Positions 31,510 through 44,956 of a stretch of DNA of 45,523 nucleotides are shown here, piece by piece; position 1 is the first letter of the stretch, and every line of letters begins with the position of its first letter. The notes below the pieces were generated by a model that did not search any database, was not told the DNA's origin, and worked only from the letters and a program-made list of their open reading frames with translations. This DNA comes from a virus (Duplodnaviria; Heunggongvirae; Uroviricota; Caudoviricetes), in IMG/VR virus record IMGVR_UViG_3300042562_001169; one strand, written 5' to 3'. A program made the position numbers and the translations under genes.

Positions 31510-31582
31510 GGGTCTTTTGTATAGATGGTTCGTACGCTAGTCTGAAGAACTAGAGGATAGGGTTCGATTCCCTGAGGACCCA
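31510..31582 (+). tRNA. tRNA-Phe(GAA)
   Basis: GGGTCTT/AGGACCC, CTAGT-CTGAAGA-ACTAG. Confidence 0.92.
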
Positions 31583-31712
31583 CAAACAAGGTGACGCTAC
31601 AGTCGTAAGATTCCGGAATCGAGAAGACAAAAAGCCTAAGTGTAAAGATGAGCTCCTACATCCTTGGACTACAACAAGCCATTTTGCGGTGAAAATCGTT
31701 GTAGTCAAAAAT

Positions 31713-31784
31713 TGCCTTGTCGTATAAAGGTTATTACGGATGACTGTTAATCATCTTATGGAGGTTCGAGTCCTCCCGGGGCAG
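31713..31784 (+). tRNA. tRNA-Asn(GTT) copy 1
   Basis: TGCCTTG/CGGGGCA, GATGA-CTGTTAA-TCATC. Confidence 0.9.
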
Positions 31785-31916
31785 CGAGGTTACCTTACAC
31801 CTCCTATATGGCACTCGGTCCGTTAAGCCGGGGAAGTGAGGTAAAAAAAAATGACTACTATTAAGGAATGATACGAGCCTGCAAAGTTCGAAAATAGTCA
31901 GGTGGTAGTCAAAATT

Positions 31917-31988
31917 GGACTTGTAGCTCAGAGGAAGAGCGGATGGTTGTTAATCATCGGGTCGGGATATCGTAATTCTCCAAGTCCG
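31917..31988 (+). tRNA. tRNA-Asn(GTT) copy 2 with atypical T-loop ATCGTAA
   Basis: GGACTTG/CAAGTCC, GATGG-TTGTTAA-TCATC. Confidence 0.8.
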
Positions 31989-32101
31989 CAAAACCTTAAA
32001 TGTGGTATCAGATACTGACAGCTCCTGCTTAAGAAGGGGTGATGGGTGTGAAAGCTGATTGAAAAGGGTACTTCTCAAACCCACATTGATAGGTGATATA
32101 T

Positions 32102-32175
32102 GGTGATTGTAGCTGAATTGGTAAAGCGTCTGATTGTGGTTCAGGAGATTGTGGGTTCGAGTCCCACCTTTCACA
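32102..32175 (+). tRNA. tRNA-His(GTG) with encoded G-1 opposite A73
   Basis: TCTGA-TTGTGGT-TCAGG; acceptor with two T.T mismatches. Confidence 0.85.
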
Positions 32176-32190
32176 CTTAAATTATGTGTT

Positions 32191-32448
32191 ATGGATGAAG
32201 ATGGAAAAATTGAAGAATTAGAGGGTCTAATTGTAGATTTAAGATTTGATTTAAAGAAATCCAAAGATAAAGAGTTGATTTACTTGGACATTTTATCCAA
32301 CATTGATAATTCGTTAAAAGTGTTGTTCAAGAGGGAACAAGAAAATGAGAGATTTAATCTTGGTGATGATGTTAATTACCGAGAATGTATTGAGAATCTA
32401 AAGTCGGCGTTGGACGAATATAAACGAGTTTATAAATTACGGTTATGA
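32191..32448 (+). CDS. Hypothetical protein (likely start 32191)
   Basis: MDEDGKIEELEG...; the upstream ORF extension lies inside tRNA-His. Confidence 0.7.
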   Translation: MDEDGKIEELEGLIVDLRFDLKKSKDKELIYLDILSNIDNSLKVLFKREQENERFNLGDDVNYRECIENLKSALDEYKRVYKLRL

Positions 32449-32498
32449 AAAAGGTATTGGATAATCTTTGAGGTCTGCTAAACAACAGACTCAAGATT

Positions 32499-32687
32499 AT
32501 GAGTGTAAACACAAACAGAATGAAACTGAACAACGCGACTTGTTCAAAAGATTACAGATTGATTTGGTTAAAGTTTGAATACTCCCCTTATTGGGATGAG
32601 GGTGTTTATTACAGAAAAGGACAATTTTCTCACAAATACAGAGAACATAAAACTTGGAAGTATAACCGAAAAACTCAATGGAAGTAA
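32499..32687 (+). CDS. Hypothetical basic protein
   Basis: 62 aa, WKYNRKTQWK end. Confidence 0.65.
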   Translation: MSVNTNRMKLNNATCSKDYRLIWLKFEYSPYWDEGVYYRKGQFSHKYREHKTWKYNRKTQWK

Positions 32688-32689
32688 AA

Positions 32690-32753
32690 TGTGTTGTTCC
32701 CGTGAGAGGGGGGTATGAAATACGAGGTAGGTTATATCATCCTACACAACACA
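32690..32753 (+). ncRNA. Four-way-junction spacer RNA
   Basis: TGTGTTGT/ACAACACA enclosing TCCC/GGGG, GTAT/ATAC and GTAGG/CCTAC. Confidence 0.4.
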
Positions 32754-32775
32754 GAGGAGTTCTTAACCTCAAAAT

Positions 32776-32867
32776 GGTCAGGTGGCGGAATTGGTAGACG
32801 CAAAGGAATGTCTAAGGTTGGTATCATTCATTCTGTCCAATTACAGGTTCGAGACCTGTCCTGACTA
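32776..32867 (+). tRNA. tRNA-like gene with Leu-type D-arm and a non-canonical 14-nt anticodon loop
   Basis: GGTCAGG/CCTGACT, ACAGG-TTCGAGA-CCTGT, GAATG/CATTC stem with loop TCTAAGGTTGGTAT. Confidence 0.6.
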
Positions 32868-32874
32868 CAAAATT

Positions 32875-32947
32875 GTCTCCATCGTTCAACTGGAAAGGAC
32901 TTATCTTTACGACAGATAGAATAGGGGTTCGAATCCTCTTGGGGACA
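32875..32947 (+). tRNA. tRNA-Arg(ACG)
   Basis: GTCTCCA/TGGGGAC, TATCT-TTACGAC-AGATA. Confidence 0.9.
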
Positions 32948-32949
32948 CA

Positions 32950-33041
32950 AAAGTAGAGACAACGAGGATGATGCGCAAATTCATTAATTAGGTTCGAATC
33001 CTAAGCCGGGGGTTTATCCCCCGGCATTGAGACTCTACTTT
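32950..33041 (+). ncRNA. tRNA-like element with a displaced T-arm
   Basis: AAAGTAGAG/CTCTACTTT enclosing TTAGG-TTCGAAT-CCTAA and an 8-bp GC hairpin. Confidence 0.45.
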
Positions 33042-33046
33042 CATTT

Positions 33047-33132
33047 GGAGAGTAAAACAATCAGGGTATTGTCACCGCCTGCTAAGCGAGTGGTTCGGTT
33101 AAATGGATGGATTTCGAGTATTCTGCTCTCCG
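33047..33132 (+). tRNA. tRNA-Ser(GCT)
   Basis: GGAGAGT/GCTCTCC, CTGCTAA loop, long variable arm, G73; weak T-stem. Confidence 0.8.
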
Positions 33133-33148
33133 CAGAAAATTAAAGATT

Positions 33149-33244
33149 ATGGAAGAAAAAGAGAAAGAAAAATTTTGGTATGAAGCAGGGTCTTTCATAA
33201 CTAAAAAAGGTATTAAAGTAACTCTTTATTTAGAGGTAAAATAG
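33149..33244 (+). CDS. 31-aa hypothetical peptide
   Basis: MEEKEKEKFWYEAGSFITKKGIKVTLYLEVK. Confidence 0.45.
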   Translation: MEEKEKEKFWYEAGSFITKKGIKVTLYLEVK

Positions 33245-33249
33245 ACATT

Positions 33250-33444
33250 ATGAAAACATTTGAAACAAAAGAATTCTTAAATGAATTAGATAAGATGGGG
33301 GTGGTTTATACAATTGATTCTAACCCGAGTCCTGAAAAAATTGAGAGATTAAAGAAAAGTATTGAAAAAAGAGATTTAAGAATTAAACAAATGGTGGAAG
33401 ATTATAATTCCGGTAAATTTGATGAAGTGATTAAATCGTTATAA
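33250..33444 (+). CDS. Hypothetical protein
   Basis: 64 aa ORF. Confidence 0.65.
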   Translation: MKTFETKEFLNELDKMGVVYTIDSNPSPEKIERLKKSIEKRDLRIKQMVEDYNSGKFDEVIKSL

Positions 33445-33446
33445 AA

Positions 33447-33559
33447 TAATTAGTTCCCCCGTTTGTTCCGTCAAGGGGTATAAAGAGACATCAATCAACG
33501 GAACCCCAAATGGAGTCCTTGCCTTAGTAGGATAAAGATGTTATAAACTCAACTAATTA
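33447..33559 (+). ncRNA. Pseudoknotted spacer RNA
   Basis: TAATTAGTT/AACTAATTA; CCCC/GGGG with loop GTTCCGT pairing to ACGGAAC; ACATC/GATGT; TCCT/AGGA. Confidence 0.5.
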
Positions 33560-33563
33560 AATT

Positions 33564-33636
33564 CTAGATGTGGGAAAGTTGGTAATCCGCTACACTTGGA
33601 CCGTAGAGACCGCTGGTTCGAGTCCAGCCATTTAGA
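33564..33636 (+). tRNA. tRNA-Pro(TGG) copy 1
   Basis: CTAGATG/CATTTAG, CTAC-A-CTTGGAC-C-GTAG. Confidence 0.85.
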
Positions 33637-33700
33637 CGAAAGGAAACTGTTACTAATTTATTGGACCTCATAGTGGGGGGAATCGTAGAATTAGAAAATT

Positions 33701-33774
33701 CGGGGTGTGGACTAAAGGCTAGTCGCCTGGTTTGGGACCAGGACATCGAGCAGATTCGATTTCTGCCACCCCGA
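33701..33774 (+). tRNA. tRNA-Pro(TGG) copy 2
   Basis: CGGGGTG/CACCCCG, CCTGG-TTTGGGA-CCAGG. Confidence 0.9.
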
Positions 33775-33840
33775 CAATTAATTAATATTATTTACTTTTT
33801 TTGAACTTATAGTATATTTATAATATAAATAAGATACATT

Positions 33841-34413
33841 ATGACTACGAGTTTGAAAGAAGATATATTAAAATTAAGGAAAGAAGGTAAAAATTATAAT
33901 GAGATTTGCGAAATATTAAATTGTTCTAAAGGGACTGTTTCATATCATTGTAATAATAATAGTGTAGGGGGTAACTATGTTAGTAATGTTAGAGAAAAGT
34001 TAACAGATGTTGAAATTGAAGAGTTAAACATATATTATAAAGACCATTCAATTGAGGAATGTATAATTAAATTTAATCTTGGCCGGTCAACAGTTATTAA
34101 ATACACGAAAAACAAATATGTTAAATTAAGTGTAGATGAATTAAGAGATAGGAATTACAATAAAGTTAAAACACATAGACAAAGGTTAAAAGAAAAATCT
34201 ATTAGTTATAAAGGTGGTTCGTGTGAAAAATGTGGATATAATAGATGTAATTCGGCGTTAGAATTCCATCATTTAGACCCTAATAAAAAAGATTTCGGGA
34301 TTGGAACATATAGTGTTTTATCTTGGGATAAAATAAAAGAAGAATTAGATAAATGTATTTTATTATGTGCGAATTGTCATAGAGAATTACATTACAATTT
34401 ACTCGGTCAGTAG
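33841..34413 (+). CDS. HTH-HNH homing endonuclease; 3' end overlaps tRNA-Ile
   Basis: HTH (NYNEICEILNCSKGTVSYH); CEKCG..LEFHHLDP..LLCANCHRELH. Confidence 0.9.
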   Translation: MTTSLKEDILKLRKEGKNYNEICEILNCSKGTVSYHCNNNSVGGNYVSNVREKLTDVEIEELNIYYKDHSIEECIIKFNLGRSTVIKYTKNKYVKLSVDELRDRNYNKVKTHRQRLKEKSISYKGGSCEKCGYNRCNSALEFHHLDPNKKDFGIGTYSVLSWDKIKEELDKCILLCANCHRELHYNLLGQ

Positions 34414-34476
34414 CTCAATCAGTAGAGCATTCGCCTGATACGCGAAAGGTAGTAGGAGCGTAGCCTACCTGACCGA
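34404..34476 (+). tRNA. tRNA-Ile(GAT) with atypical T-loop AGCGTAG
   Basis: CGGTCAG/CTGACCG, TTCGC-CTGATAC-GCGAA. Confidence 0.82.
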
Positions 34477-34558
34477 CAAATGTGGCTCACTGATTTTGAT
34501 TATTAAGCTCAAATTACTTATATTTTGAGCCAAATAATAGAGTAAAATGAGCCCAATC

Positions 34559-34629
34559 GCCCCCAAAGCTTTAAGGTGAAGCACGATACTTTTAATATCG
34601 GGAAGTTGGTTCGATACCACCTGGGGGTA
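34559..34629 (+). tRNA. tRNA-Lys(TTT)
   Basis: GCCCCCA/TGGGGGT, CGATA-CTTTTAA-TATCG. Confidence 0.88.
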
Positions 34630-34637
34630 CAAAAAAA

Positions 34638-34902
34638 ATGTTTAACTAATAAATCAAAAGTTGTGAGTAGTGTTACTTGGTCAGTATTTAGTGCTGAATA
34701 TTTTAGTGAAGTAAAAAAAGAATTAGTGTGGAGAAAACAAACTTTTCTTTATATGGGAGATTTATCCAACGTAGATATGACAACAGATTGGAGATTTAGT
34801 GATGTTGAAGGAAAAAGAAGAAAGTGTAAATTTTTAGGGTTAATAGATAATCCGGAATTTCCACTAAAAGGACCAATTAAAACATATAGAAATAATGAAT
34901 AA
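34638..34902 (+). pseudogene. Hypothetical gene with an out-of-frame ATG (possible 1-nt insertion, or a downstream GTG start)
   Basis: ATG 34638 reads M-F-N-stop, but the adjacent frame stays open to 34902. Confidence 0.35.
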
Positions 34903-35401
34903 GTACGGAAAAACATTGGTTTTGGATTCAAGTTATATGCCAAGGTCTATCATAAACACTGAAAGGGCTTTTGTAATAACTTATAAAGGTAATGCAAGTG
35001 TAATTGCCGAACATCCGGAATCATTTAATCTAATCAATCCTGAATTAGATATTAAGAAACCTTCAATCATAAGGGTTTATAAATACGTGAATCAACCAAT
35101 TCATAAAGTTCCATTAAGTAGAGAGAATGTTTATCGTAGAGATAACTTTGAGTGTGTTTACTGTGGGTGTGATAATCGTAAGACATTGACATTAGACCAC
35201 GTAATACCCCAATCTAAAGGGGGTAAAGACGCGTGGGACAACTTGGTTACCGCTTGTAGAAGATGTAATGGTGAGAAGTCCAATTTGACTTTGGAAGAGT
35301 ATGGTAAAGAAATCCCCCAACCAAGACGACCACACTATTTAATGATGATGAAACAAGTTCATTATGTTCCAAAAGAATGGGAAGATTATTTGTTTATTTA
35401 A
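34895..35401 (+). CDS. HNH endonuclease (bacterial-type)
   Basis: SRENVYRRDNFECVYCG...LTLDHVIPQSKGG..WDNLVTACRRCN. Confidence 0.9.
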   Translation: MNKYGKTLVLDSSYMPRSIINTERAFVITYKGNASVIAEHPESFNLINPELDIKKPSIIRVYKYVNQPIHKVPLSRENVYRRDNFECVYCGCDNRKTLTLDHVIPQSKGGKDAWDNLVTACRRCNGEKSNLTLEEYGKEIPQPRRPHYLMMMKQVHYVPKEWEDYLFI

Positions 35402-35419
35402 AAAATAGTTATATCTTTG
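35389..35419 (+). promoter_or_regulatory. Bacteroidota-type promoter inside tRNA block 1
   Basis: TTTG 35389-92, 19 nt, TATCTTTG 35412-19. Confidence 0.7.
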
Positions 35420-35435
35420 TCAAAAATTAATAGAT

Positions 35436-35597
35436 ATGACAATGGAACAAGAAATTTTAGGTTTTACAAATTGGTTATACACTAACAATTGGAAACTAAT
35501 TGGTGATGGTATGTGTTTGAATCTTGAAACAAAGGAAATTGGTTATATTAACGAACTAATGGTCGAATATGAACTAATTGCCGAATATAAAGAATAG
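35436..35597 (+). CDS. Hypothetical protein (53 aa)
   Basis: MTMEQEILGFTNW...; downstream of the promoter. Confidence 0.6.
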   Translation: MTMEQEILGFTNWLYTNNWKLIGDGMCLNLETKEIGYINELMVEYELIAEYKE

Positions 35598-35602
35598 AAA
35601 TT

Positions 35603-35845
35603 ATGATACCAAAAAATGAAATGGTTGAAGGTTGGTATAAGGGTTTCTGTAGAAACAATTATATGGCTTTTTGGGACGGAGAGAAGTTCCAATACATCCG
35701 ATATAAGTTCGGGTATCGTTTGGATACCATAGAACATTTTGAAGATGTTAAAGAACAAAGATTAGATGGGTTTGTCCCGGTTGAGAGAATTGAAAGATTA
35801 ACTCCGGAGGAACAATGGAATGAAAAAAATGAAATAGGATATTAA
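35603..35845 (+). CDS. Hypothetical protein
   Basis: 80 aa ORF. Confidence 0.7.
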   Translation: MIPKNEMVEGWYKGFCRNNYMAFWDGEKFQYIRYKFGYRLDTIEHFEDVKEQRLDGFVPVERIERLTPEEQWNEKNEIGY

Positions 35846-35846
35846 G

Positions 35847-36446
35847 ATGATAGATAATATAAAAGAAATCAAAGAATTACTGAATTTCTCGGACAAAAAC
35901 GATTTCTATATGTTATACGTTTTCAAGAGAAAAAAGGACCAACCTGAGGGTGAGAGAGATAATCACCAATCGGTTAGAACAATCAAAACATATTGTATTG
36001 ACAGCATTGAACATCTTGATAAGAGATACGATGAAATCAAACAATTATGTGAGATGTTCAAGGCAAGAGCTTACATTCACGTTCAGAAACAAAACCATAT
36101 GGATGTTTCTTTGGAAATGATGATGTCGTTAGCTGAGAGAATTAAAAATGGTGTGAAAAACCAAAAGGGTTTATTTGATTCCGTTGTGGGTCAAATCAAA
36201 ACACAAGAAAAAAGATGGATTGTAGATATTGATACAACTGACCCTGATTTTTTATATGAAGTTGCGGATTTTATTAAAGACCTTAAACCAGTTGGTTTTA
36301 AAGTTGAAAAAGTAATACCTACCAAAAATGGTAGACATTTAATCACATCTCGATTCGATGTTAAAACATTTAGTGAAAAATACCCGGATGTTGATATTCA
36401 AAAGAAAAATCCAACATTATTGTATTATCCAAATAGTTTAGATTAA
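35847..36446 (+). CDS. Hypothetical protein with AEP (primase-polymerase)-like motifs
   Basis: WIVDID and PTKNGRHLI. Confidence 0.55.
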   Translation: MIDNIKEIKELLNFSDKNDFYMLYVFKRKKDQPEGERDNHQSVRTIKTYCIDSIEHLDKRYDEIKQLCEMFKARAYIHVQKQNHMDVSLEMMMSLAERIKNGVKNQKGLFDSVVGQIKTQEKRWIVDIDTTDPDFLYEVADFIKDLKPVGFKVEKVIPTKNGRHLITSRFDVKTFSEKYPDVDIQKKNPTLLYYPNSLD

Positions 36447-36625
36447 ACAACACATAGAAAAACGGACAATAGAGGCGTAAATTGGTTAGTCCACGCCCCG
36501 ATATAGCATTAGCCTATATTGTGACGACTCTAAACACCCCAAGAAGTGTTATGTTTTGTTGAGTAAGGTAAGAGAAGGTTGAAAGTCCAAAACATACTTA
36601 TCCCAACTTGGTGGATGTGTTGTTT
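36445..36625 (+). ncRNA. Repeated structured RNA motif, copy 1
   Basis: 11-bp closing stem; shares CAAGAAGTGTTATGTTT(T)GTTGAGTAAG with 39891-40077. Confidence 0.65.
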
Positions 36626-36634
36626 TTATTAAAT

Positions 36635-36704
36635 GGTCTTGTTGGTCGTGGCGACCGGTTAGTCTGCAAAACTAACAGAGTGAGTTCGATTCTCACCGAG
36701 ACCT
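36635..36704 (+). tRNA. tRNA-Cys(GCA)
   Basis: GGTCTTG/CGAGACC, TTAGT-CTGCAAA-ACTAA, U73. Confidence 0.9.
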
Positions 36705-36708
36705 CAAA

Positions 36709-36860
36709 TAACATAATTGTTTAACCACGAAAATGGGCTTGAACAACCGAATGGAAGACGCGTTTCTTACTAGGGAGTAAAATAGAAAATTAGATTCGGA
36801 GGCATCCGGGTTGTGTGAAAAAGTAGGGAGCTCCCGGCAGGGACTAAAATAATTGTGTTA
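36709..36860 (+). ncRNA. Structured spacer RNA
   Basis: TAACATAATT/AATTGTGTTA closing; TTTCT..AGAAA, TACT/AGTA, TCGGA/TCCGG. Confidence 0.4.
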
Positions 36861-36866
36861 TTATAT

Positions 36867-36938
36867 ACGTCATTGGTGAAATGGTTATCATTTTAGTCTC
36901 CAAAACTAAAGTTTCAGATTCGAGTTCTGAATGGCGTG
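36867..36938 (+). tRNA. tRNA-Trp(CCA)
   Basis: ACGTCAT/ATGGCGT, TTAGT-CTCCAAA-ACTAA, G73. Confidence 0.9.
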
Positions 36939-37010
36939 CAAGAAGACGGAGAGTGAGTCAAGGGTAATTCCGTTATGGTTATCCCTCGAGGGTCTCTCCT
37001 GAAGAAATAT

Positions 37011-37084
37011 GGATTTTGAAGTACAATTGGACGTGCGACCGGTGTAAGACCGGGAGGATATAGGTTCGAATCCTATCATTATCC
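37011..37084 (+). tRNA. Atypical tRNA-like gene (loop TGTAAGA, G33; nominal TAA)
   Basis: GTAC/GTGC D-stem, CCGG/CCGG anticodon stem, ATAGG-TTCGAAT-CCTAT; weak acceptor. Confidence 0.5.
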
Positions 37085-37088
37085 CAAG

Positions 37089-37236
37089 AAACAGACCTAT
37101 AACTTACGTCAGTGGTAGTGTAGGGGTGAGGTTCGGAGTAATCAACCAAACCAAGAAACCGCCGAGGGTAAACACGAGTATGATGCTTGTCTAGTCCCCT
37201 AAGACTGAAATATCGGAGAATCCTCATTGTCTGTTT
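37089..37236 (+). ncRNA. Structured spacer RNA with pseudoknot potential
   Basis: AAACAGAC/GTCTGTTT; CAGT/ACTG, AGGGG/CCCCT, TGAGG/CCTCA, ACGAGTA/TGCTTGT. Confidence 0.4.
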
Positions 37237-37246
37237 TTTTAAAATA

Positions 37247-37443
37247 AAAAGTTTAACAACCGGGGTGTCCATACTCTAAAAAATTAATGGACTAGCGTGT
37301 TGATAGGGGTGACCTCCCAATAGTAGCACCGTAGTAATACGGTAAAGGATAGATAAGGACTAGTACGCCGGTGACGAACACGACGAATTCCGGAATTCCC
37401 ATTGTAGCCCGCTACGACCCGAGGGCGGGGTTGTTAAACTTTT
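37247..37443 (+). ncRNA. About 200-nt structured RNA closed by a perfect 15-bp stem
   Basis: AAAAGTTTAACAACC/GGTTGTTAAACTTTT; GTCCA/TGGAC, CGTGTT/AACACG, ACCGTA-GTAA-TACGGT. Confidence 0.6.
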
Positions 37444-37461
37444 TTCTTTATATTTATCAAT

Positions 37462-37806
37462 ATGAAAAACTTTAAATTTTTAATGGATAAACTCAAGGAC
37501 TATAATTTAGATTCTGAGGATTATGCGGTTTTTGGTTCCGCACCATTAGTAATCACCGGAATGATTAATGATGTTAATGACTTAGACGTAATTATACGTC
37601 CATCAAAATGGGAATTTAATGATGAAGGTGAATATAGAACCAAAGATATTGAATTTTTCAATAATTGGCCCGAATACGATATTGATGACTTAATTGATAA
37701 TCACTCATTCGTTTATAATGGGGTTCGATTCATAAATCCAAAGAAAGTTATTGAATATAAAAAATCCCTTAAAAGGAATAAAGATAAAAATATTTGGGAT
37801 AATTAA
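37462..37806 (+). CDS. Minimal nucleotidyltransferase-like protein (Pol-beta superfamily)
   Basis: YAVFGS...NDLDVII. Confidence 0.65.
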   Translation: MKNFKFLMDKLKDYNLDSEDYAVFGSAPLVITGMINDVNDLDVIIRPSKWEFNDEGEYRTKDIEFFNNWPEYDIDDLIDNHSFVYNGVRFINPKKVIEYKKSLKRNKDKNIWDN

Positions 37807-37878
37807 AATAAATCTTACCAATAATTGACTTTTTACAAAACTAACGTATATTTATTAGAAATTACAATAACACAACAA

Positions 37879-37953
37879 ATGCAAACTTTAAACATATTAC
37901 TTACGATAGCGGGAACTGAGGGTAGAGATACAACTTGGAAGCAGATGGTATGA
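37879..37953 (+). CDS. Leader peptide 2 of tRNA block 2: MQTLNILLTIAGTEGRDTTWKQMV
   Basis: 24-codon ORF; AGATGG (37943-48) complementary to the terminator 5' arm; TTG-N19-TATATTTA promoter-like element at 37825-37854. Confidence 0.75.
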   Translation: MQTLNILLTIAGTEGRDTTWKQMV

Positions 37954-37982
37954 TATATATTTAAGTAAAAAAAATATTCAAA

Positions 37983-38014
37983 AATCCATCTTCAAAAAAG
38001 GTGGATTTTTTTTT
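37983..38014 (+). terminator. Attenuator terminator upstream of tRNA block 2
   Basis: AATCCATCTT/AAGGTGGATT plus T-run. Confidence 0.9.
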
Positions 38015-38023
38015 GTCTTAAAG

Positions 38024-38054
38024 TTTGGTATATTGAAATAAAAGATTATCTTTG
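38024..38054 (+). promoter_or_regulatory. Bacteroidota-type promoter
   Basis: TTTG 38024-27, 19 nt, TATCTTTG 38047-54. Confidence 0.75.
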
Positions 38055-38075
38055 TAAGGAATTAAAAAACAAGAT

Positions 38076-38186
38076 ATGGACGATACAAGAGAAGAGTTGG
38101 TTATGGATTACTCACCAATATTAGGAGTAACCTACGGATTAAAAAATGTTTTGGTTGAGGATGATTCAACAGAAAAAGAAGAATAA
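38076..38186 (+). CDS. 36-aa hypothetical peptide
   Basis: MDDTREELVMDYSPILG...; lies between two near-identical promoters. Confidence 0.5.
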   Translation: MDDTREELVMDYSPILGVTYGLKNVLVEDDSTEKEE

Positions 38187-38202
38187 AAAAAAGATTAAAA
38201 AG

Positions 38203-38233
38203 TTTGGTATAATGAAATAAAGTATTATCTTTG
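38203..38233 (+). promoter_or_regulatory. Bacteroidota-type promoter upstream of tRNA-Glu (near-copy of 38024)
   Basis: TTTG 38203-06, 19 nt, TATCTTTG 38226-33. Confidence 0.75.
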
Positions 38234-38280
38234 TACCATCAAAATGAAACAAGTTAATTGACATATTGGTAATATAAAAC

Positions 38281-38352
38281 GGCCCTATCATCTATCGGTT
38301 AGGATATTTGGTTTTCATCCAAAAAAGTCGGGTTCGACTCCCGGTGGGGCTA
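38281..38352 (+). tRNA. tRNA-Glu(TTC)
   Basis: GGCCCTA/TGGGGCT, TTTGG-TTTTCAT-CCAAA. Confidence 0.92.
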
Positions 38353-38417
38353 CAAGGGTTATGAACAACGTGTCCCCTTAATTTCACAATGTTGACAATT
38401 CGGAAAGACGAGTAAAT

Positions 38418-38487
38418 GGGTCAGATGACAACGGCAGTTCAACTGATTTGCAATCAGATTGTTTGGGTTCGACTCCCACTGTATCCA
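38418..38487 (+). tRNA. tRNA-Ala(TGC), irregular acceptor stem
   Basis: CTGA-TTTGCAA-TCAG; G3.U70 wobble retained. Confidence 0.65.
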
Positions 38488-38587
38488 CAAAAAACAGAAA
38501 GACAGAATACGGGAAGTCACTACCCGGGAAACACGGTTCTTTCTCCTTCAATTGTTATAGGATAGTCACCTTTGAATTGAAAATTTT

Positions 38588-38659
38588 GGTCTATTTGTCT
38601 AACGGCTAGGATGCTACCCTGTCACGGTAGAGGCGAGAGTTCGATTCTCTCATAGACCG
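38588..38659 (+). tRNA. tRNA-Asp(GTC)
   Basis: GGTCTAT/ATAGACC, CTACC-CTGTCAC-GGTAG, G73. Confidence 0.93.
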
Positions 38660-38708
38660 CAAAACTCAAGATTAATTACCTTGAGAATGGAAGGTTCGAA
38701 ACTTCCGA

Positions 38709-38817
38709 TTGATTATAGTGTAATGGTGCACACCATCCCCCCAAAACAGGGTTCGAGTCCCTGGAACGTGGGCTTCTCAGGGGAAGGGAGATTAAGGTTC
38801 GAATCCTTACTAATCAG
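38709..38817 (+). tRNA. tRNA-like gene with a large insertion in the anticodon loop containing a second T-arm
   Basis: TTGATTA/TAATCAG, GTGT/GCAC, TAAGG-TTCGAAT-CCTTA; insert CAGGG-TTCGAGT-CCCTG. Confidence 0.55.
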
Positions 38818-38822
38818 CAAAT

Positions 38823-38892
38823 TGCGTTAAAGTGTAAAGGTTGCATCTAAGTCTCATAAGCTTGGGGGGTGGTTCGAGTCCACGTTACGCTA
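38823..38892 (+). tRNA. tRNA(CAT), Met-type
   Basis: TAAGT-CTCATAA-GCTTG; acceptor with mismatches. Confidence 0.75.
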
Positions 38893-38906
38893 CTAAGAAT
38901 AAACAT

Positions 38907-38979
38907 CGTGGGATAGAGCAGTTGGCAGCTCGTGTGGCTCATAACCATAAGGTCGGAGGTTCGAGTCCTCCTCCCGCTA
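38907..38979 (+). tRNA. tRNA-fMet(CAT) (initiator-like)
   Basis: C1 mismatched with T72, GAGC/GCTC D-stem, TGTGG-CTCATAA-CCATA. Confidence 0.85.
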
Positions 38980-39001
38980 CTAATTTAATAACTAAATCCG
39001 T

Positions 39002-39175
39002 ATGGCTACAGTAGCAAAAAGGTCAAGACAACAAAGAGTTCTTGAAATGTTGGAGAAACAATTAAAAAATGGTTTAAAAACCGAAAAAGGAACACGAGAT
39101 GTGAAGGTTCCATTAACTGATTCTGATAAGAAGAGAATCGTTAAAGAGATTGAGAATCTCAAAACAAAAGTATAA
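39002..39175 (+). CDS. Basic hypothetical protein (57 aa)
   Basis: MATVAKRSRQQRVLEMLEKQLK... Confidence 0.65.
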   Translation: MATVAKRSRQQRVLEMLEKQLKNGLKTEKGTRDVKVPLTDSDKKRIVKEIENLKTKV

Positions 39176-39224
39176 ACTTATAAGTTTAAAATTTAAATTT
39201 ATTTTCAAGGTATAAGTTTAAAAT

Positions 39225-39298
39225 GCGGGTATGGTGTTTAACGGCTAGCACGTGGGCCTTCCAAGTCTGAAGTTTCGGTTCGAATCCGAATATCCGCT
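39225..39298 (+). tRNA. tRNA-Gly(TCC)
   Basis: GCGGGTA/TATCCGC, TGGGC-CTTCCAA-GTCTG, U73. Confidence 0.92.
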
Positions 39299-39300
39299 CA

Positions 39301-39728
39301 AAAATAGTGAAAAAGTAATTATATGAAGTAACCTTCGGGGACACTGCCGGAACCCTTTAACACATAGGTAGGTGAAAAGTATGATGAAAGACAACGGCGC
39401 ACCGGTCAACCATCTGGGAGTAATTACCCATAACGGATGTGGAGATGAAGTCACAGCTCCTTAGGACCGCAATGGTGAAAAATTTGGTCGAACTATTTTA
39501 ATTTTTATATTCTGTTTGACGTTAGACAGTATGGTGCCCTGGATATCTCGGAAACACAAGTGGGGAAGGAAGTTACTCACCACATACAGAAAACATAGAT
39601 TCGTATGTCTAACGAAAGGTTAAGTGAAAAGGTCGGCATTCGTTCCAACGTTGCGACAGACTATAATAGGGGAGTGAAGGGGTTTGGGCCTTCACACTTA
39701 ATTACCAATCTATGTCGGTAACAGAATA
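39301..39728 (+). ncRNA. Large non-coding structured region (two domains of about 200 nt)
   Basis: AAAATAGT/ACTATTTT and TATTCTGTT/AACAGAATA closing stems; long-range GTTAGACA/TGTCTAAC and CATAGATT/AATCTATG. Confidence 0.6.
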
Positions 39729-39732
39729 AATT

Positions 39733-39804
39733 GGCTCCATCGTTCAACGGATAGGACATTTCTCTTCTAAGGAAATTATCGGGGTTCGAATCCCTGTGGA
39801 GTCA
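39733..39804 (+). tRNA. tRNA-Arg(TCT)
   Basis: GGCTCCA/TGGAGTC, TTTCT-CTTCTAA-GGAAA. Confidence 0.92.
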
Positions 39805-39812
39805 CAACAATT

Positions 39813-39885
39813 GCCTTGGTGGTGGAACGGTAGACACGGAAGTCTTAGGAACTTCATATTGAGGGTTCGATTCCCTCCTGAGGTA
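39813..39885 (+). tRNA. tRNA-Leu(TAG) with short variable loop
   Basis: GCCTTGG/CTGAGGT, GAAGT-CTTAGGA-ACTTC, variable region ATATT. Confidence 0.85.
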
Positions 39886-39890
39886 CAAAA

Positions 39891-40077
39891 TTTACGCATA
39901 GAAAGACAAACAAAATACAAGCCACAACAGTTAATGCACTACAATGTATTACAACACTATCAAGAAGTGTTATGTTTGTTGAGTAAGATAAAGAAAAACC
40001 TGGACGTGAGTTAGGTATGGATTAAGGTGAGAGTCGTAACCTCCATAGAATTATCCCCATCTTGAGGGATGTGTAAA
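39891..40077 (+). ncRNA. Repeated structured RNA motif, copy 2
   Basis: TTTACGCAT/ATGTGTAAA closing; core block shared with 36445-36625. Confidence 0.65.
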
Positions 40078-40081
40078 AATA

Positions 40082-40235
40082 TACATTATCATAACTCGGT
40101 GTGATACACCGCCAACTACCTCCTTAAACAACGTGGGAACTGCGGTTCTCCCAATGTGGCCGAAGTGATGATGTAAAAAGAAACAGAGAAAAATCTGGAC
40201 AGCGAAAGCAGGATAGACCTTGGACAGTTTCTTTT
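40082..40235 (+). ncRNA. Two further stem-closed spacer elements
   Basis: TACATTATCAT/GTGATGATGTA (40082-40175); AAAAGAAAC/GTTTCTTTT (40176-40235). Confidence 0.4.
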
Positions 40236-40288
40236 AGTAGTTTAAGAGACAGAGCTGACTTCTACTTTAAAAAAATGCTCTGCGACAG

Positions 40289-40361
40289 GCTGGTAAAACA
40301 TAAATGGTGATGTGCTTGTTTTGTACACAAGATAATAGGGTTCGATTCCTTATACCAGCTC
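40289..40361 (+). tRNA. tRNA-Thr(TGT)
   Basis: GCTGGTA/TACCAGC, CTTGT-TTTGTAC-ACAAG. Confidence 0.9.
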
Positions 40362-40426
40362 AATTTTTTTTATTGTTCGAATCTGACTTTTGACTCTTTT
40401 TGTGATATTTATAATAAAGAGAAGTT

Positions 40427-41140
40427 ATGAAAAAATGGACAGAAGAAGAATTTAATTTATCAGTGAATTACATAAATAATGGGTTGACTTATGATGAAAT
40501 TGCGGAATTCTTAAATAGAACTAAAAAATCGGTTAGAATAAAGTTAAATAAATTTGGTGTTTATGTTAAACCAAAAATTTATACTATTGAAAAAAAATGT
40601 ATTCATTGTAATAATGATTTTATATCGTTTATTAGTGAAGAAAGAAAATATTGTTCTCAGTCGTGTTCCGCAAAAGAAAATAATAAATTATATGTTAAAC
40701 GACAAAAAACCGAATTTAATGTAGAAGTTAAAAATCTGAATAAACAAATTAAAAATTGTTTGAATTGTGGGTGTGAAATTAATGATTCAACAAAAACATA
40801 TTGTAATCAAATTTGTTTTCACGAAAATCGTAAAAAAAATATTTTTAATTTAATCAATAATAATGATACTACATTAAATCCAAGACAATATAAAAAATAT
40901 CTTATTGAAAAATATGGTAATAAATGTATGGAATGTGGATGGGGTGAAAAAAACCCAAAAAGTAATACAATACCAATTGAGTTAGAACATATCGACGGAA
41001 ATGGGTCTAACAACACATTAAGTAATTTAAAATTATTATGTCCTAATTGTCATTCTTTAACTCCAACATATAAGGGGGCGAATAAAGGTAATGGAAGACA
41101 TAATAGAAGAGAAAGATACCAAGATGGTAAAAGTTATTAA
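40427..41140 (+). CDS. HTH-Zn finger-HNH homing endonuclease
   Basis: LTYDEIAEFLNRT..SV; CxxC..YCSxxC repeats; IELEHIDGN..NN.LSNL.LLCPNCH. Confidence 0.9.
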   Translation: MKKWTEEEFNLSVNYINNGLTYDEIAEFLNRTKKSVRIKLNKFGVYVKPKIYTIEKKCIHCNNDFISFISEERKYCSQSCSAKENNKLYVKRQKTEFNVEVKNLNKQIKNCLNCGCEINDSTKTYCNQICFHENRKKNIFNLINNNDTTLNPRQYKKYLIEKYGNKCMECGWGEKNPKSNTIPIELEHIDGNGSNNTLSNLKLLCPNCHSLTPTYKGANKGNGRHNRRERYQDGKSY

Positions 41141-41143
41141 AAT

Positions 41144-41223
41144 AGTTAGGTGGCGGAATTGGATAGACGCGGCCCCGTTGAGGGGTTTAACCGGAATTAC
41201 AGGTTCGAGTCCTGTCCTGACTA
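41144..41223 (+). tRNA. tRNA-like gene paralogous to 32776, non-canonical anticodon arm
   Basis: AGTTAGG/CCTGACT, GCCCC-GTTGA-GGGGT (5-nt loop), ACAGG-TTCGAGT-CCTGT. Confidence 0.6.
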
Positions 41224-41227
41224 CAAT

Positions 41228-41430
41228 TGAGATAGAGATACTCAATAGATTTGGCATCGTTTCTTAAACAAAGATGTAGCTGACGCCTCAAACGGTTTTA
41301 CAGAGGGGGTCTTAGGGTTAATAGGGAGCCTACCAACTCACCTCCTAGTAATGGTTGACTTTTTAAGTGGTAAGACACGTAGGGTTTTTGAATAGGAAAA
41401 ACTAAGAATATCTACACCAAAATAATCTCA
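41228..41430 (+). ncRNA. About 200-nt structured spacer RNA
   Basis: TGAGAT/ATCTCA, TTTGG/CCAAA, GTCTTA/TAAGAC, TAGG(G)AG/CTCCTA, GTTTTT/AAAAAC. Confidence 0.45.
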
Positions 41431-41443
41431 TTGGTGGAAAAAT

Positions 41444-41516
41444 GTCCTCGTGGTGAAACGGTAAACACAACGGTTTTAAGCATCGTAAGCTGTAGGTTCG
41501 ACTCCTACCGGGGATA
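41444..41516 (+). tRNA. tRNA-Leu(TAA) with short variable loop
   Basis: GTCCTCG/CGGGGAT, ACGGT-TTTAAGC-ATCGT, variable region AAGCT. Confidence 0.85.
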
Positions 41517-41582
41517 CTAATATTTAATATTATGAAAAACAACCAACCCAACTCCACTTAGTTTTAGCTATTAGCTAAAATT

Positions 41583-41813
41583 ATGACTCAGAAATTGAGA
41601 ATTTGGAGAGTAGTACCCGTTAGTAACGGTGTTCAGGCTCCCACTTTTTTCGTAGAAACTACGGAAGAAGGACGTGAGAAGGCAGAGGAATCTGCGATTA
41701 AACAAGCACGAATTAAATCGGGCTTAGGAAAGTTCAAACAATGGAACTTTAGATTGGAGAAACTCTCTGTGAGGGTTGATAAATTTGGTAGGTATGTGAA
41801 ACACCACCAATAA
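41583..41813 (+). CDS. Hypothetical protein
   Basis: 76 aa ORF. Confidence 0.65.
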   Translation: MTQKLRIWRVVPVSNGVQAPTFFVETTEEGREKAEESAIKQARIKSGLGKFKQWNFRLEKLSVRVDKFGRYVKHHQ

Positions 41814-41852
41814 GTTGACATATGTTTGTGGGTTCATTAAAAACCCATAATT

Positions 41853-41924
41853 GGTCTCGTAGCTCAAAGGTGGAGCAGTTCGCTCATAACGAAAAGGATG
41901 GGATATCGTGATTCCCCGAGACCA
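41853..41924 (+). tRNA. tRNA(CAT), probable Ile2 (lysidine type), atypical T-loop ATCGTGA
   Basis: GGTCTCG/CGAGACC fully paired, TTCG-CTCATAA-CGAA; the Ile2 call is an inference. Confidence 0.75.
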
Positions 41925-42036
41925 CAGCGGATATTTGAGTGTAAGCAAGTACAATATCTATCGTTAGACCCTTACAGGTGATGAACGGTGGTCTTAGGGT
42001 CATTCCTAAGTGTAGATACCAGTTAACTCTACATAG

Positions 42037-42064
42037 AACCTTCAAGGAAACTTGGGGGTTTTTT
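42037..42064 (+). terminator. Terminator closing the tRNA array
   Basis: CAAG-GAAA-CTTG core with extended stem and T-run. Confidence 0.7.
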
Positions 42065-42204
42065 ATTTACAATAAAATAAATCATCCTTATATTTATAAC
42101 TGAAACCTTGTTGCTGAGGTTCTCGTGTCCACAGAGGCATTTGAGTTGGAATTGATACCAACGAAGAGAAGTTCAATAAACATAAAAAATAAAATAAGGA
42201 AATT

Positions 42205-43068
42205 ATGTATTACCAAACAAAAACAGGTACGCCTTGTGCGTATATCTCAAAAGACAGAAAACGTCTTAAACAATTTGGACAAACTGTCTATCTAAACAAC
42301 GGGGACGAATTCCAATTGGAATTATTCAACCCATCATCAACCACAGTATTAGCGAAAATCAAACTTGACGGAAGTTATATCTCCGGAGGAGGAATTGTTC
42401 TTAAACCGGGACAAAGAGTATTTCTTGAGAGATACCTTGACGACGCTTGTAAATTTAAGTTTGAAACTTATGAGGTTGATGGAACATCAAATGAGGTATT
42501 GGATGCCATCGCCGGAAATGGGGATGTTGTTATCGACTTCTTTGATGAATATAAACAACCGGTGTGGAACAACCCAATAACTTATGTTGGTGGTTCATTT
42601 GGTGGACCAACTCATACATATTATAACAATACAGGTACATTTTCAGGTGGATATGCTCATACAACATTAAGTAATAATGTATCTTTTACGTCATCAAGTA
42701 ATACTGCGGGAGTTAATTTTAATACTACCTCAATAAGTAATACTTTTGCAGGACCAAACATTAGAAGTAAAAGAGGTATATTAAAATCTAAAGGTAATTC
42801 TCGTAGTGAGGTTACTATGGATGGTATGTTATCTATGGACTCAGTAGAAACCGGTAGAGTTGAAAAAGGTGGTTCATCTGACCAATCTTTTAAAACGGTA
42901 GATAAAACTTTTAATCATTATACTTGTTCTACATCGATATGGAAGATATTACCGGTGTCACAACAGGTTTTTGAAAAACAGGATTTAAAAGTGTATTGTG
43001 TTAACTGTGGAAAAAAAAGAAAAAAAGATTCCGATAAATTTTGTTCTTCTTGTGGGGACAAATTCTAA
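42205..43068 (+). CDS. Hypothetical protein: beta-rich N-domain, low-complexity linker, C-terminal zinc ribbon
   Basis: EFQLELFNP...LAKIKLDG; YCVNCG...KFCSSCG. Confidence 0.85.
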   Translation: MYYQTKTGTPCAYISKDRKRLKQFGQTVYLNNGDEFQLELFNPSSTTVLAKIKLDGSYISGGGIVLKPGQRVFLERYLDDACKFKFETYEVDGTSNEVLDAIAGNGDVVIDFFDEYKQPVWNNPITYVGGSFGGPTHTYYNNTGTFSGGYAHTTLSNNVSFTSSSNTAGVNFNTTSISNTFAGPNIRSKRGILKSKGNSRSEVTMDGMLSMDSVETGRVEKGGSSDQSFKTVDKTFNHYTCSTSIWKILPVSQQVFEKQDLKVYCVNCGKKRKKDSDKFCSSCGDKF

Positions 43069-43096
43069 AAAATAAACAAATAACAAGGTTTCATAA

Positions 43097-43126
43097 AAAA
43101 ACCCCTTCTTTTCAGAGGGGGTTTTT
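43097..43126. terminator. Bidirectional terminator
   Basis: AAAAACCCCT/GGGGGTTTTT. Confidence 0.8.
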
Positions 43127-43141
43127 GATTTTATATTAATT

Positions 43142-44956
43142 TTATGGTGTTGTTGGTGTTGGGGTTGGTGTTTCAGTATTAGTAGGTGTTGGAGTTTGAG
43201 TTGGAGTCTCGGTAGGTGTTGGTGTTTGCGTCGGAGTCTCAGTTGGTGTTGGGGTTGGGGTTGGGGTTGGACATCCATTAGGGTCGGATGATGTAATTTG
43301 TCCAAGTCCTCCCGTAATGTTATACCAGGCAGTTCCGTTAGAATAGTAACCATCAGGAGCAGGAGTTATTAATGATGTGTCAATGTATATATATTCATTA
43401 AGATTCGGTCCAATTCCACCTGCAACAGGTGCGTAAACATTAATTGGTGAACCAACATTAGTACAAGCATCAATTGATGTTGCTCCGGTTCCTAAACTAT
43501 ATGTGTAATAACCAAATGTTGCTGTTGGTGTCATTGAAGGTGTTGGAGTTATTGTCGTTGTAGGTGTTGGTGTGATAGTAGGTGTTGGTGTTGGAATTAT
43601 TGAACATAATGTAAATGGTGATATAGCAAATCCTGTGTTATCTAATTCAACTTCTTGTCCTAAATACGCGTAATATCCTGACATATCAATAGTTGATGGT
43701 CCATATACATCATTAAAGAATTCAGTATTCATATCGAAAGTACTATTTTCTCCATAAATAACTATTGGTGTACCGGTAGAACATACTGAATAAATACTAG
43801 TGTCAAATAATACATTAAATAAAGTTCTTGTTACAACGGTAGGTGTTGGTGTTTGAGTTGGAGTTTCAGTTTGAGTTGGTGTTTGAGTTGGTGTTGGTGT
43901 TTGAGTTGGAGTTTCAGTTTGAGTTGGAGTTGGTGTTTGCGTCGGAGTCTCGGTTGGTGTTGATGTTTGAGTTGGTGTTGGTGTCGGAATATTGTATGTG
44001 AAAATATTTGACGTTGTAGGTCCACCATTAATACATTCTTGAGTTATTCTAAAATAAATAATATTTGTTGGGTCTATACCAATATCAAATGGTTCCGGTG
44101 TTGAACACTGACCAACTATTGGAACCCAAGTTATAAGGTCTAAAGAGTATGATAAGAATGCTTGAACACAATTAGGTTCTAAATTTACAAAGTTATATTC
44201 CCAAGTTGTGCCAGCACTATATGTTACGCTAAGTAATTCTATTCCACATAATGGGAATGTTGGTGTTGGAGTCAATGTCATCGTATTTGTTGGTGTCATT
44301 GTAGGTGTTGGAGTTGGTGTTGGGATATTATTTTGAATCTCATTTGAGGTTGTTGGTCCACCAACAATTGATTCTTGTGTTATTCTAAAGATAACACTGT
44401 CGTATAATTCTATACCCACATCCCAAGTTGTTGGAGACGTAACACATCCAATGATATTTGTTACCCAATTAAAACCACCATCAAGCGAGTATTCTAAGTA
44501 TAAATTAGAACAATTACTATCAATGTTTATAAAAGTGTATTCCCAATTATATGCTGATGTATTAACAACACTTGATAATATTATACCATTTAATGGGAAT
44601 GTTGGAGTTGGAGTTGGAGTCTCAGTTTGCGTCGGAGTCTGTGTTGGAGTCTCAGTTTGCGTCGGAGTCTGTGTTGGAGTCATTGTAGGTGTTTGAGTTG
44701 GTGTTTGACTAGGTGTTTGAGACGGAAGTATTGGTGAGTGAGTAGGTGGAAAATCCAATACCTCAATAATATCAACACAAGAAGATGTCCCTTGATTATT
44801 TAAAAATCTTAATGTTCCATCAAAAGCCCAAACATTTTTAATTTGACCGGGTGCTAATGAAACTTGGTATTGCCACATACTATCTGACAATGTTTTGTAA
44901 TTGAAAAATATTGTGATTTGACAAATATTTTTTAAAATGTATTTTTTTCCTACCAT
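43142..44956 (-). CDS. Thr-Pro (mucin-like) repeat protein with a duplicated beta domain; putative virion fibre or decoration
   Basis: Five TPT(P/Q)T tracts separating globular modules; two homologous FPL.GI...FRITQE...GGPTTSN domains. Confidence 0.8.
   Translation of the reverse strand: MVGKKYILKNICQITIFFNYKTLSDSMWQYQVSLAPGQIKNVWAFDGTLRFLNNQGTSSCVDIIEVLDFPPTHSPILPSQTPSQTPTQTPTMTPTQTPTQTETPTQTPTQTETPTPTPTFPLNGIILSSVVNTSAYNWEYTFINIDSNCSNLYLEYSLDGGFNWVTNIIGCVTSPTTWDVGIELYDSVIFRITQESIVGGPTTSNEIQNNIPTPTPTPTMTPTNTMTLTPTPTFPLCGIELLSVTYSAGTTWEYNFVNLEPNCVQAFLSYSLDLITWVPIVGQCSTPEPFDIGIDPTNIIYFRITQECINGGPTTSNIFTYNIPTPTPTQTSTPTETPTQTPTPTQTETPTQTPTPTQTPTQTETPTQTPTPTVVTRTLFNVLFDTSIYSVCSTGTPIVIYGENSTFDMNTEFFNDVYGPSTIDMSGYYAYLGQEVELDNTGFAISPFTLCSIIPTPTPTITPTPTTTITPTPSMTPTATFGYYTYSLGTGATSIDACTNVGSPINVYAPVAGGIGPNLNEYIYIDTSLITPAPDGYYSNGTAWYNITGGLGQITSSDPNGCPTPTPTPTPTETPTQTPTPTETPTQTPTPTNTETPTPTPTTP

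Follow-up and report, generated by a model that had tools for sequence, protein, structure and literature searches.

Genomic context of the two copies

In this study, we characterise two related stretches of DNA, here called copy A and copy B, that lie within the transfer RNA (tRNA) gene array of a tailed phage (Caudoviricetes; IMG/VR record IMGVR_UViG_3300042562_001169). The window denotes the whole stretch that was analysed, 45,523 nucleotides (nt) in length, and all positions refer to it. Between 30.7 and 41.9 kb it holds 24 tRNA genes called by ARAGORN, all on the plus strand, plus a few extra matches to the Rfam tRNA model. An earlier reading of the window by a model that saw only the letters (the original prediction) had proposed that the two stretches are copies of one functional RNA, copy A ending 9 nt before tRNA-Cys and copy B starting 5 nt after tRNA-Leu. 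Both spacings hold, and the proposed ends proved exact, with the two strands of a closing helix (P1) bounding each copy (Table 1). The shared blocks described at the time are likewise present, namely CATAGAAA, a core of 27-28 nt running from CAAGAAG to GAGTAAG, TTATCCC and GGATGTGT, all of which were aligned by MAFFT. A 26-nt core common to A and B found no match in 100 shuffles of the window. With a covariance model of the element (R1, see below) and all filters off, no third copy was found in 29000-45523, so that the tRNA region of the window contains exactly two.

Table 1. Features of copies A and B and of their surroundings in the window. P, paired helix; J, joining strand; ORF, open reading frame; bp, base pairs. 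L numbers designate other loci carrying the element.
Feature	Position	Strand	Remarks
Copy A, whole RNA (P1 to P1′)	36445-36625	+	R1 110.6 bits (E 1e-24)
Copy A, P1 5′ strand	36445-36455	+	11 bp with 36615-36625; P1 covaries in the family
Copy A, J1/2 AGAAA	36456-36460	+	invariant, 77/77
Copy A, P2 5′ strand	36461-36468	+	pairs with 36552-36560, one bulged U; P2 99.2% paired in the family
Copy A, variable arm 1 (P2.1)	36469-36532	+	closed by UAGAG/CUCUA
Copy A, P3 hairpin	36533-36550	+	loop CCAAG (36539-36543) pairs with CUUGG (36607-36611): pseudoknot, C-G instead of the usual U-A
Copy A, J2/4 GAGUAA	36561-36566	+	AGUA invariant, 77/77
Copy A, P4 and variable arm 2	36567-36602	+	GGUAAG/CUUAUC
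Copy A, P5 hairpin	36603-36614	+	CCA/UGG
Copy B, whole RNA	39891-40077	+	R1 181.5 bits (E 5e-42)
Copy B, P1 5′ strand	39891-39899	+	9 bp with 40069-40077, one G-U
Copy B, J1/2 AGAAA	39900-39904	+	invariant, 77/77
Copy B, P2 5′ strand	39905-39912	+	pairs with 39973-39980
Copy B, variable arm 1 (P2.1)	39913-39952	+	AAUAC/GUAUU
Copy B, P3 hairpin	39953-39971	+	loop UCAAGA (39960-39965) pairs with UCUUGA (40060-40065)
Copy B, J2/4 GAGUAA	39981-39986	+	AGUA invariant, 77/77
Copy B, P4 and variable arm 2	39987-40055	+	GAUAA/UUAUC; identical arm in L011 beside a different arm 1
Copy B, P5 hairpin	40056-40068	+	CCC/GGG
tRNA-Cys	36635-36705	+	9 nt downstream of copy A; same slot in L144, L132, L130, L179
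tRNA-Leu(UAG)	39813-39886	+	ends 5 nt before copy B; same slot in L011, L007, L006
Bacteroidota-type promoter match	35389-35419	+	nearest upstream of copy A; precedes three ORFs, copy A and tRNA-Cys
Bacteroidota-type promoter matches	38203-38233, twin 38024-38054	+	nearest upstream of the block from tRNA-Glu through copy B
Bacteroidota-type promoter match	30636-30666	+	one of 13
HNH homing-endonuclease ORFs, three, within the tRNA array	33841-34413, 34895-35401, 40427-41140	+	

An uncatalogued RNA family

Relatives of the two copies were collected by pattern scans and scored with a covariance model. R1 was built from nine sequences (MAFFT alignment A2), and 77 sequences were fitted to it (alignment A4). 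Candidates came from an exact-core search of IMG/VR, which gave at least 11 contigs, and then from looser pattern scans and one metagenome scan. Two loose pattern scans returned mostly chance matches, which the covariance model removed, as true members score 83-186 bits and chance pattern matches at most 19 bits, the gap between them being empty. The resulting family comprises at least 77 distinct sequences and at least 85 complete matches in IMG/VR and metagenome contigs. Its members span 163-289 nt when about 10 nt of flanking sequence at either end is counted, the RNA itself measuring about 145-270 nt. The contig names suggest that most of them stem from metagenomes of freshwater lakes and sediments, and that a TARA ocean sample supplied one.

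Outside these sources the element was not recovered. The core pattern had 37 matches in bacteria and archaea (one genome for each of 185,579 species), none of which scores with R1, and megablast and blastn searches of 50,697 deposited phage records gave no match other than chance words; the window as a whole likewise has no near relative among deposited phages at the DNA level. Rfam 15 (4227 models, among them ribozyme, riboswitch, tRNA, transfer-messenger RNA (tmRNA), 6S, signal recognition particle, RNase P and Y RNA-like families) matched neither copy at the gathering threshold or at E ≤ 5 over 30000-42500; at E ≤ 10 copy B alone had no match, and copy A alone only noise of 12-14 bits. The earlier view that no named motif can be assigned therefore stands. 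A full-text search of the literature with three core strings, spelled both as RNA and as DNA, turned up nothing relevant, the 8,495 unnamed IMG/VR candidates of PMC10690425 not being part of the comparison, and a search of the ribozyme, tRNA and phage literature found no description of the family. A resemblance of GAAAGUCC, in the variable arm of copy A, to conserved region I of RNase P is treated as a coincidence, because the string lies in a variable arm and is shared by few members.

Taken together, the homologues and their covariation support the reading of both stretches as genes of one uncatalogued family of structured non-coding RNA, as far as can be judged from sequence. It is a new family among the structured non-coding RNAs of phage tRNA regions, which are themselves a known kind without an explanation.

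Secondary and tertiary structure

The consensus of the 77 sequences consists of five conserved helices, P1 to P5. Because P4, P5 and the 3′ strand of P1 abut without any linker nucleotide, P1, P2, P4 and P5 meet in a perfect four-way junction. P1 closes the element and is 7-18 bp long across members; its inner 6 bp (ACACAU/AUGUGU) are nearly invariant, and the outer 1-12 bp covary freely. It is followed by J1/2, which reads AGAAA in every member, and by the 8 bp of P2 (GACAAACA/UGUUUGUU). Inside P2 lies a three-way branch carrying the variable hairpin P2.1 (17-132 nt, with a covarying closing stem of at least 5 bp in 72 of the 77) and the hairpin P3 (AACAC/GUGUU, loop UAUCAAGAA). The strand returning from P2, J2/4, reads GAGUA and then either U or A. 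P4 is closed by GAUAA/UUAUC, five pairs that all covary, and encloses a variable insert of 24-106 nt; P5 has only 3 bp, the third being A-U in 54 members, U-A in 11 and C-G in 9, and a loop of AAUCUUGA. Three stems of P1, P2 and P4 that had been quoted as differing between the two copies while remaining paired are thus real and retained in the 77 relatives, and the two internal variable regions described with them correspond to P2.1 (VR1) and the P4 arm (VR2).

The original prediction had missed a pseudoknot of 5-6 bp between the loop of P3, (U)CAAGA, and that of P5, UCUUG(A). Of these pairs, five never vary; at the sixth, 30 members have U-A and 10 have C-G, the group to which copy A belongs, and the combinations C-A and U-G never occur.

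Over 38 pairs and 77 sequences, 96.6% of 2859 pair cells are paired, compared with 39-47% when the partners are slid by 1-3 columns. Compensatory change is found in 17 pairs, double changes occur in 176 cells, and none of 500 shuffles reaches the observed covariation scores. Because A4 was fitted to the model, independent checks on A2 matter: here 93.8% of cells are paired against 39-48% after sliding, and RNAalifold predicts P1, P2, P3 and P5 de novo. An alternative pairing of two AACAC with two GUGUU segments was dropped, since it is not conserved (copy B has ACGC).

Between P2 and the junction the AGAAA and (G)AGUA strands face each other, with the bulged-G signature of AGUA opposite GAA in all 77 members. 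In line with the loop-E/S-turn suggestion made earlier, this internal loop fits, at the level of sequence, the bulged-G motif (sarcin-ricin/loop E, S-turn). Nearly all conserved nucleotides fall within this junction-centred core of about 105 nt. Antisense action is unlikely, since almost every conserved nucleotide is used in the fold and no conserved free loop is left.

As modelled, the fold is topologically a giant cloverleaf with a contact resembling that of D-loop and T-loop. Like a tRNA, it has four helices at one junction, a last hairpin that abuts the closing helix and a contact between the loops of the second and fourth arms, and some members bear T-arm-like hairpins in their variable arms. 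Unlike a tRNA, it has no anticodon-like constant loop, no CCA and no discriminator, and its junction strands are 5 and 6 nt long. ARAGORN and the Rfam tRNA model RF00005 make no call on either copy, and we do not regard the element as a tRNA or tRNA-like structure. A tRNA-like ruler, in which P1 and P5 together would measure 12 bp, was also rejected in view of the lengths of these two helices.

Strand-specific selection

One-sided helix changes are A to G or C to U and fall on the 5′ strand, which is rich in purines and C; the 3′ strand, rich in U and G, does not change, and G-U wobbles result. At the first pair of P2 (columns 20-215), for example, 56 of 77 members have G-U; read from the opposite strand, these pairs would be A-C mismatches. 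The RNA and tRNA genes always share orientation. These G-U-producing changes, together with the strict co-orientation, show selection on an RNA read from the plus strand. A coding function is disfavoured by the covariation and because arm lengths are not strict multiples of three (remainders of 0, 1 and 2 in 23, 34 and 20 members for VR1 and in 40, 17 and 20 for VR2).

Modularity of the variable arms

The two outward hairpins are hypervariable and reshuffled among members, the minimal ones having hairpins of just 17-24 nt. An identical VR1 occurs with a different VR2 in 8 cases and an identical VR2 with a different VR1 in 6; L011, for instance, has the arm 1 found in L007 together with the arm 2 found in copy B. 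When phages co-infect, the conserved core evidently provides the patch at which they recombine.

Some arms carry recognisable modules. A hairpin with a covarying 7-bp stem and the constant loop GGUUUGGG is present in variable arm 2 of L006, L007, L366 and L373, and it also stands alone in the window at about 39667-39693 (plus strand), within the spacer at 39300-39732. Hairpins with the same form as the T-arm of tRNA are found in the variable arms of L379, L348 and L324 (GGUUCGAGUCC, GGUUCAACUCC and GGUUCGAUUCC); they may represent captured fragments of tRNAs or tertiary modules of the T-loop type.

Copy number and neighbourhood

In five IMG/VR genomes rated 90-100% complete (94, 116, 128, 309 and 340 kb) the element is present in 1, 1, 1, 1 and 2 copies. 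With one or two copies per near-complete genome, and two in the tRNA region of the window, it is not an interspersed repeat of the kind formed by miniature inverted-repeat transposable elements. The same five genomes lack the DnaK of the window, and its 982-aa (amino acid) protein has one weak partial match in one of them; conservation of the RNA core thus far exceeds that of these two proteins. The DnaK/Hsp70 homologue itself lies at 6715-8583 (plus strand; phrog_22485, 829 bits), and its nearest relatives (59-67% identity) are in uncultured phages of 630-735 kb.

Three positions recur. The element lies 8-14 nt upstream of tRNA-Cys in copy A and four other members, between tRNA-Leu(UAG) and tRNA-Thr, about 5 nt downstream of the former, in copy B and three others, and 360-2300 nt upstream of a phage tmRNA at three loci (L003 at 2254-2656, L156 and L142), where the DNA between the RNA and the tmRNA is largely ORF-free. 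Directly after copy B a hairpin-closed element at 40082-40175 (plus strand) exposes, at about 40117-40125, the sequence ACCUCCUUA, which resembles the 3′ tail of 16S rRNA; L007 and L011 have this flank conserved behind their copies. At loci with no tRNA in the flanking DNA examined, the genes are varied, the element lying behind a 231-aa protein annotated without function, behind a 456-aa protein beside a MoxR-type ATPase, or next to an SPFH/Band 7 gene, on one side or the other. Overall, the neighbours change from locus to locus and include SPFH, exonuclease, MoxR ATPase and HNH genes as well as unknowns. The element usually starts no more than about 65 nt from where a co-directional ORF or tRNA ends, and the spacing to the next gene is irregular.

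These data bear on a reading in which part of the constraint acts on the DNA, the element being a selfish or recombination-prone cassette such as a target or passenger of freestanding HNH homing endonucleases. Such a cassette would explain the invariant helices and the spread over unrelated phages, and it draws on the three HNH ORFs in the window array, on HNH families F1 and F6, which recur within 2 kb of the RNA in many loci, on the shuffled arms and on the presence of the element in phages without the two large window proteins. We nevertheless hold it to be very improbable: the G-U-specific substitutions, the covariation of the pseudoknot and the strict co-orientation show selection on RNA, the low copy number is not repeat-like, and no HNH gene is consistently adjacent.

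Transcription and cis-acting alternatives

A promoter motif of Bacteroidota type, TTTG-N17-23-TAnnTTTG, is enriched in the window, with 13 matches against 4.0 expected and none of 100 shuffles reaching this number; a scan of the window for sigma-70 promoters found no enrichment. The enrichment makes Bacteroidota the probable host phylum of this phage and suggests that the matches mark the starts of tRNA transcripts. No promoter match belongs to either copy alone; the nearest ones on the same strand lie upstream of whole gene blocks, and the match at 35389 and the pair at 38024/38203 would drive the transcripts that hold copies A and B, respectively. Since both copies would then be internal to polycistronic transcripts, release by processing would be needed, and the RNase P site of tRNA-Cys would set the 3′ end of copy A. 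An intrinsic terminator was considered and rejected: neither copy contains a terminator-like site, and the five members located 8-14 nt upstream of tRNA-Cys need read-through transcription.

The position of the element shortly after a co-directional gene, with irregular distances to the next one, would also suit a cis-acting processing or stability signal that is recognised by a host RNase (P, E or III) or blocks 3′ exonucleases and has no function of its own, and the cloverleaf-like topology may point the same way. We regard this as quite unlikely, because the element occurs merely once or twice per genome of 94-340 kb, behind different genes in different phages, and because a near-invariant core of about 105 nt with a pseudoknot goes far beyond what such signals need. 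ARAGORN and the Rfam tRNA model are moreover blind to the element, and an RNase P/Z-type ruler is disfavoured because the stack of P1 on P5 lacks a fixed length.

A ligand-sensing, riboswitch-like aptamer controlling the expression of downstream tRNAs or genes is the least probable of the explanations considered, and a remote one. Lysine and SAM-I riboswitches combine a multi-helix junction, a loop-loop contact and an S-turn-like motif, a design that the present RNA resembles by analogy. However, we found no expression platform, and the element, which lies 9-14 nt before tRNA-Cys, has no terminator-like match at it; no downstream gene is conserved, the neighbours being of unrelated families at irregular distances, and no Rfam riboswitch model matches.

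Proposed function

The family is real and strand-specific, with a compact core, two dispensable arms, a low copy number and no linked protein gene. As to what it does, we lean, with modest confidence, towards a discrete structured RNA that is cut from polycistronic tRNA/mRNA transcripts and whose core works in trans by binding a partner. Each copy would be transcribed on the tRNA strand inside such a transcript and released by the enzymes that trim neighbouring tRNAs, together with other host RNases. The junction and pseudoknot would form the working part, leaving the outward arms P2.1 and P4 free to vary and to be swapped by recombination. Most likely the core would offer a binding site in trans for a conserved partner common to the hosts of these unrelated phages. 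Its retention in phages without the two large window proteins suggests either action via something common to the hosts or a catalyst-like self-sufficiency. Among specific roles, our first choice, put forward tentatively, is that of a scaffold or decoy engaging some conserved factor of host or phage.

Several observations weigh against this proposal. A same-strand tRNA or tmRNA was found at 44 of 85 loci with flanking DNA examined and was lacking at the other 41, so that the placement beside tRNA genes noted in the original prediction is true of both window copies and does not extend to the family, of which only about half conform; tRNA-linked processing can therefore not be the general route of release. 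A search for a protein partner through the neighbourhood failed, as the clusters of flanking ORFs are recurrent but mutually unrelated. The folding energy of each copy alone is unremarkable (z of -1.3 and -1.4), and support for the fold is accordingly comparative rather than thermodynamic. Finally, the inner 6 bp of P1, P2 and P3 are almost invariant in sequence, which goes beyond what selection for structure would by itself produce and could stem from catalysis, from a constraint on the DNA or from tight tertiary packing. These invariant helix sequences are the least explained feature of the family, and dense tertiary packing or sequence-specific recognition fits them better than a simple signal does.

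The main alternative is catalysis. A new self-cleaving ribozyme could cut the polycistronic transcript, setting the upstream mRNA or tRNA apart from the downstream tRNAs, with the AGAAA/GAGUA internal loop at the four-way junction as its putative active site, held by the loop-loop pseudoknot. The element would sit within transcripts that need cutting; its conserved nucleotides cluster at the junction, the internal loop and the tertiary contact while the peripheral arms vary freely; and unrelated phages carry it once or twice in a genome, beside no gene that is conserved as its neighbour. Such scatter among genomes is typical of the small self-cleaving ribozymes of phages. Theta ribozymes, which resemble that of hepatitis delta virus, sit just downstream of phage tRNAs and trim tRNA 3′ trailers. 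They provide a precedent (PMC10879173) for a structured RNA directly beside phage tRNA genes, much as copy B lies 5 nt past a tRNA. The present RNA differs from them in having no nested double pseudoknot, another size and other conserved nucleotides, and many of its members lie away from tRNAs.

A second likeness concerns the hairpin ribozyme in its natural four-way-junction form, in which loop A (AGAA opposite N-GUC) and loop B occupy adjacent arms. On its perfect junction, the strands of loop A run from the junction through AGAA(A) to the distal helix, opposite a strand running from the distal helix through A-GU to the junction. The order of the AGAAA and GAGUA strands here is analogous, with AGAA opposite A-GU in the same orientation to a perfect junction. 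In contrast to the hairpin ribozyme, the present RNA has Watson-Crick loop-loop pairing in place of docking, and its internal loop lies flush against the junction. It does have a four-way junction and a loop A-like sequence, no counterpart of loop B was found in the conserved core, and the Rfam hairpin model is silent; the likeness should be taken as a lead only. Moreover, no Rfam ribozyme model matches even weakly, AGUA/GAA is also a common non-catalytic bulged-G motif, and to our knowledge helix sequences are far more conserved here than in known small ribozymes. On this evidence we rate a self-cleaving ribozyme as possible and rather unlikely. It is similarly doubtful that the family represents a new class of catalytic RNA in the wider sense, self-cleaving or otherwise RNA-processing, with about 105 core nt, that cuts tRNA/mRNA transcripts of unrelated large phages.

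Returning to an RNA that acts in trans, its closest known functional parallels are the T4 species 1 and 2 RNAs (rnaC, 139 nt; rnaD, 119 nt), GOLLD and ROOL, and it is a family member of none of these. The T4 RNAs are likewise non-tRNA RNAs in a phage tRNA cluster near a homing endonuclease gene; they are co-transcribed with tRNAs and still have no function assigned in the literature. Both window copies share their setting, being non-tRNA genes on the tRNA strand of a tRNA cluster. The present RNA is larger than rnaC and rnaD, has a four-way junction and a pseudoknot, and in roughly half of its members is not part of a tRNA cluster. Homology was rejected: R1, with filters off, found nothing above 10 bits in NC_000866 69800-72200, and 1.8 bits over rnaD. 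GOLLD and ROOL are about 3-5 times larger than the present RNA. Their Rfam models, which are among the Rfam 15 models, find no match in copies A and B. They are similar in being phage-borne, of open function, often beside tRNAs and built of a conserved core with variable decorations, and they are reported to form RNA-only multimers (10.1101/2024.12.08.627333).

Since the T4 era, phage tRNA clusters have been seen to hold stable RNAs lacking an assigned function, and the present family is a better-defined example, in which 77 natural variants already mark the changeable parts around a compact, near-invariant core. The small size of this core suits structure determination and engineering. If the readings above are right, either outcome, a new ribozyme class or an RNA engaging a conserved host machine, would be new for large environmental phages.

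Further features of the tRNA array

Among the matches to the Rfam tRNA model that ARAGORN missed, those at 31917-31988, 32776-32867 and 37012-37084 and the weaker ones at 38419-38487 and 38823-38892 (all on the plus strand) may be non-canonical or decayed tRNA genes. Following the tRNA-like match at 37012-37084, an ORF-free stretch of about 200 nt (37246-37444, plus strand; z of -1.2) has a 16-bp long-range closing helix and a T-run at its end, and looks like another structured RNA in the array.

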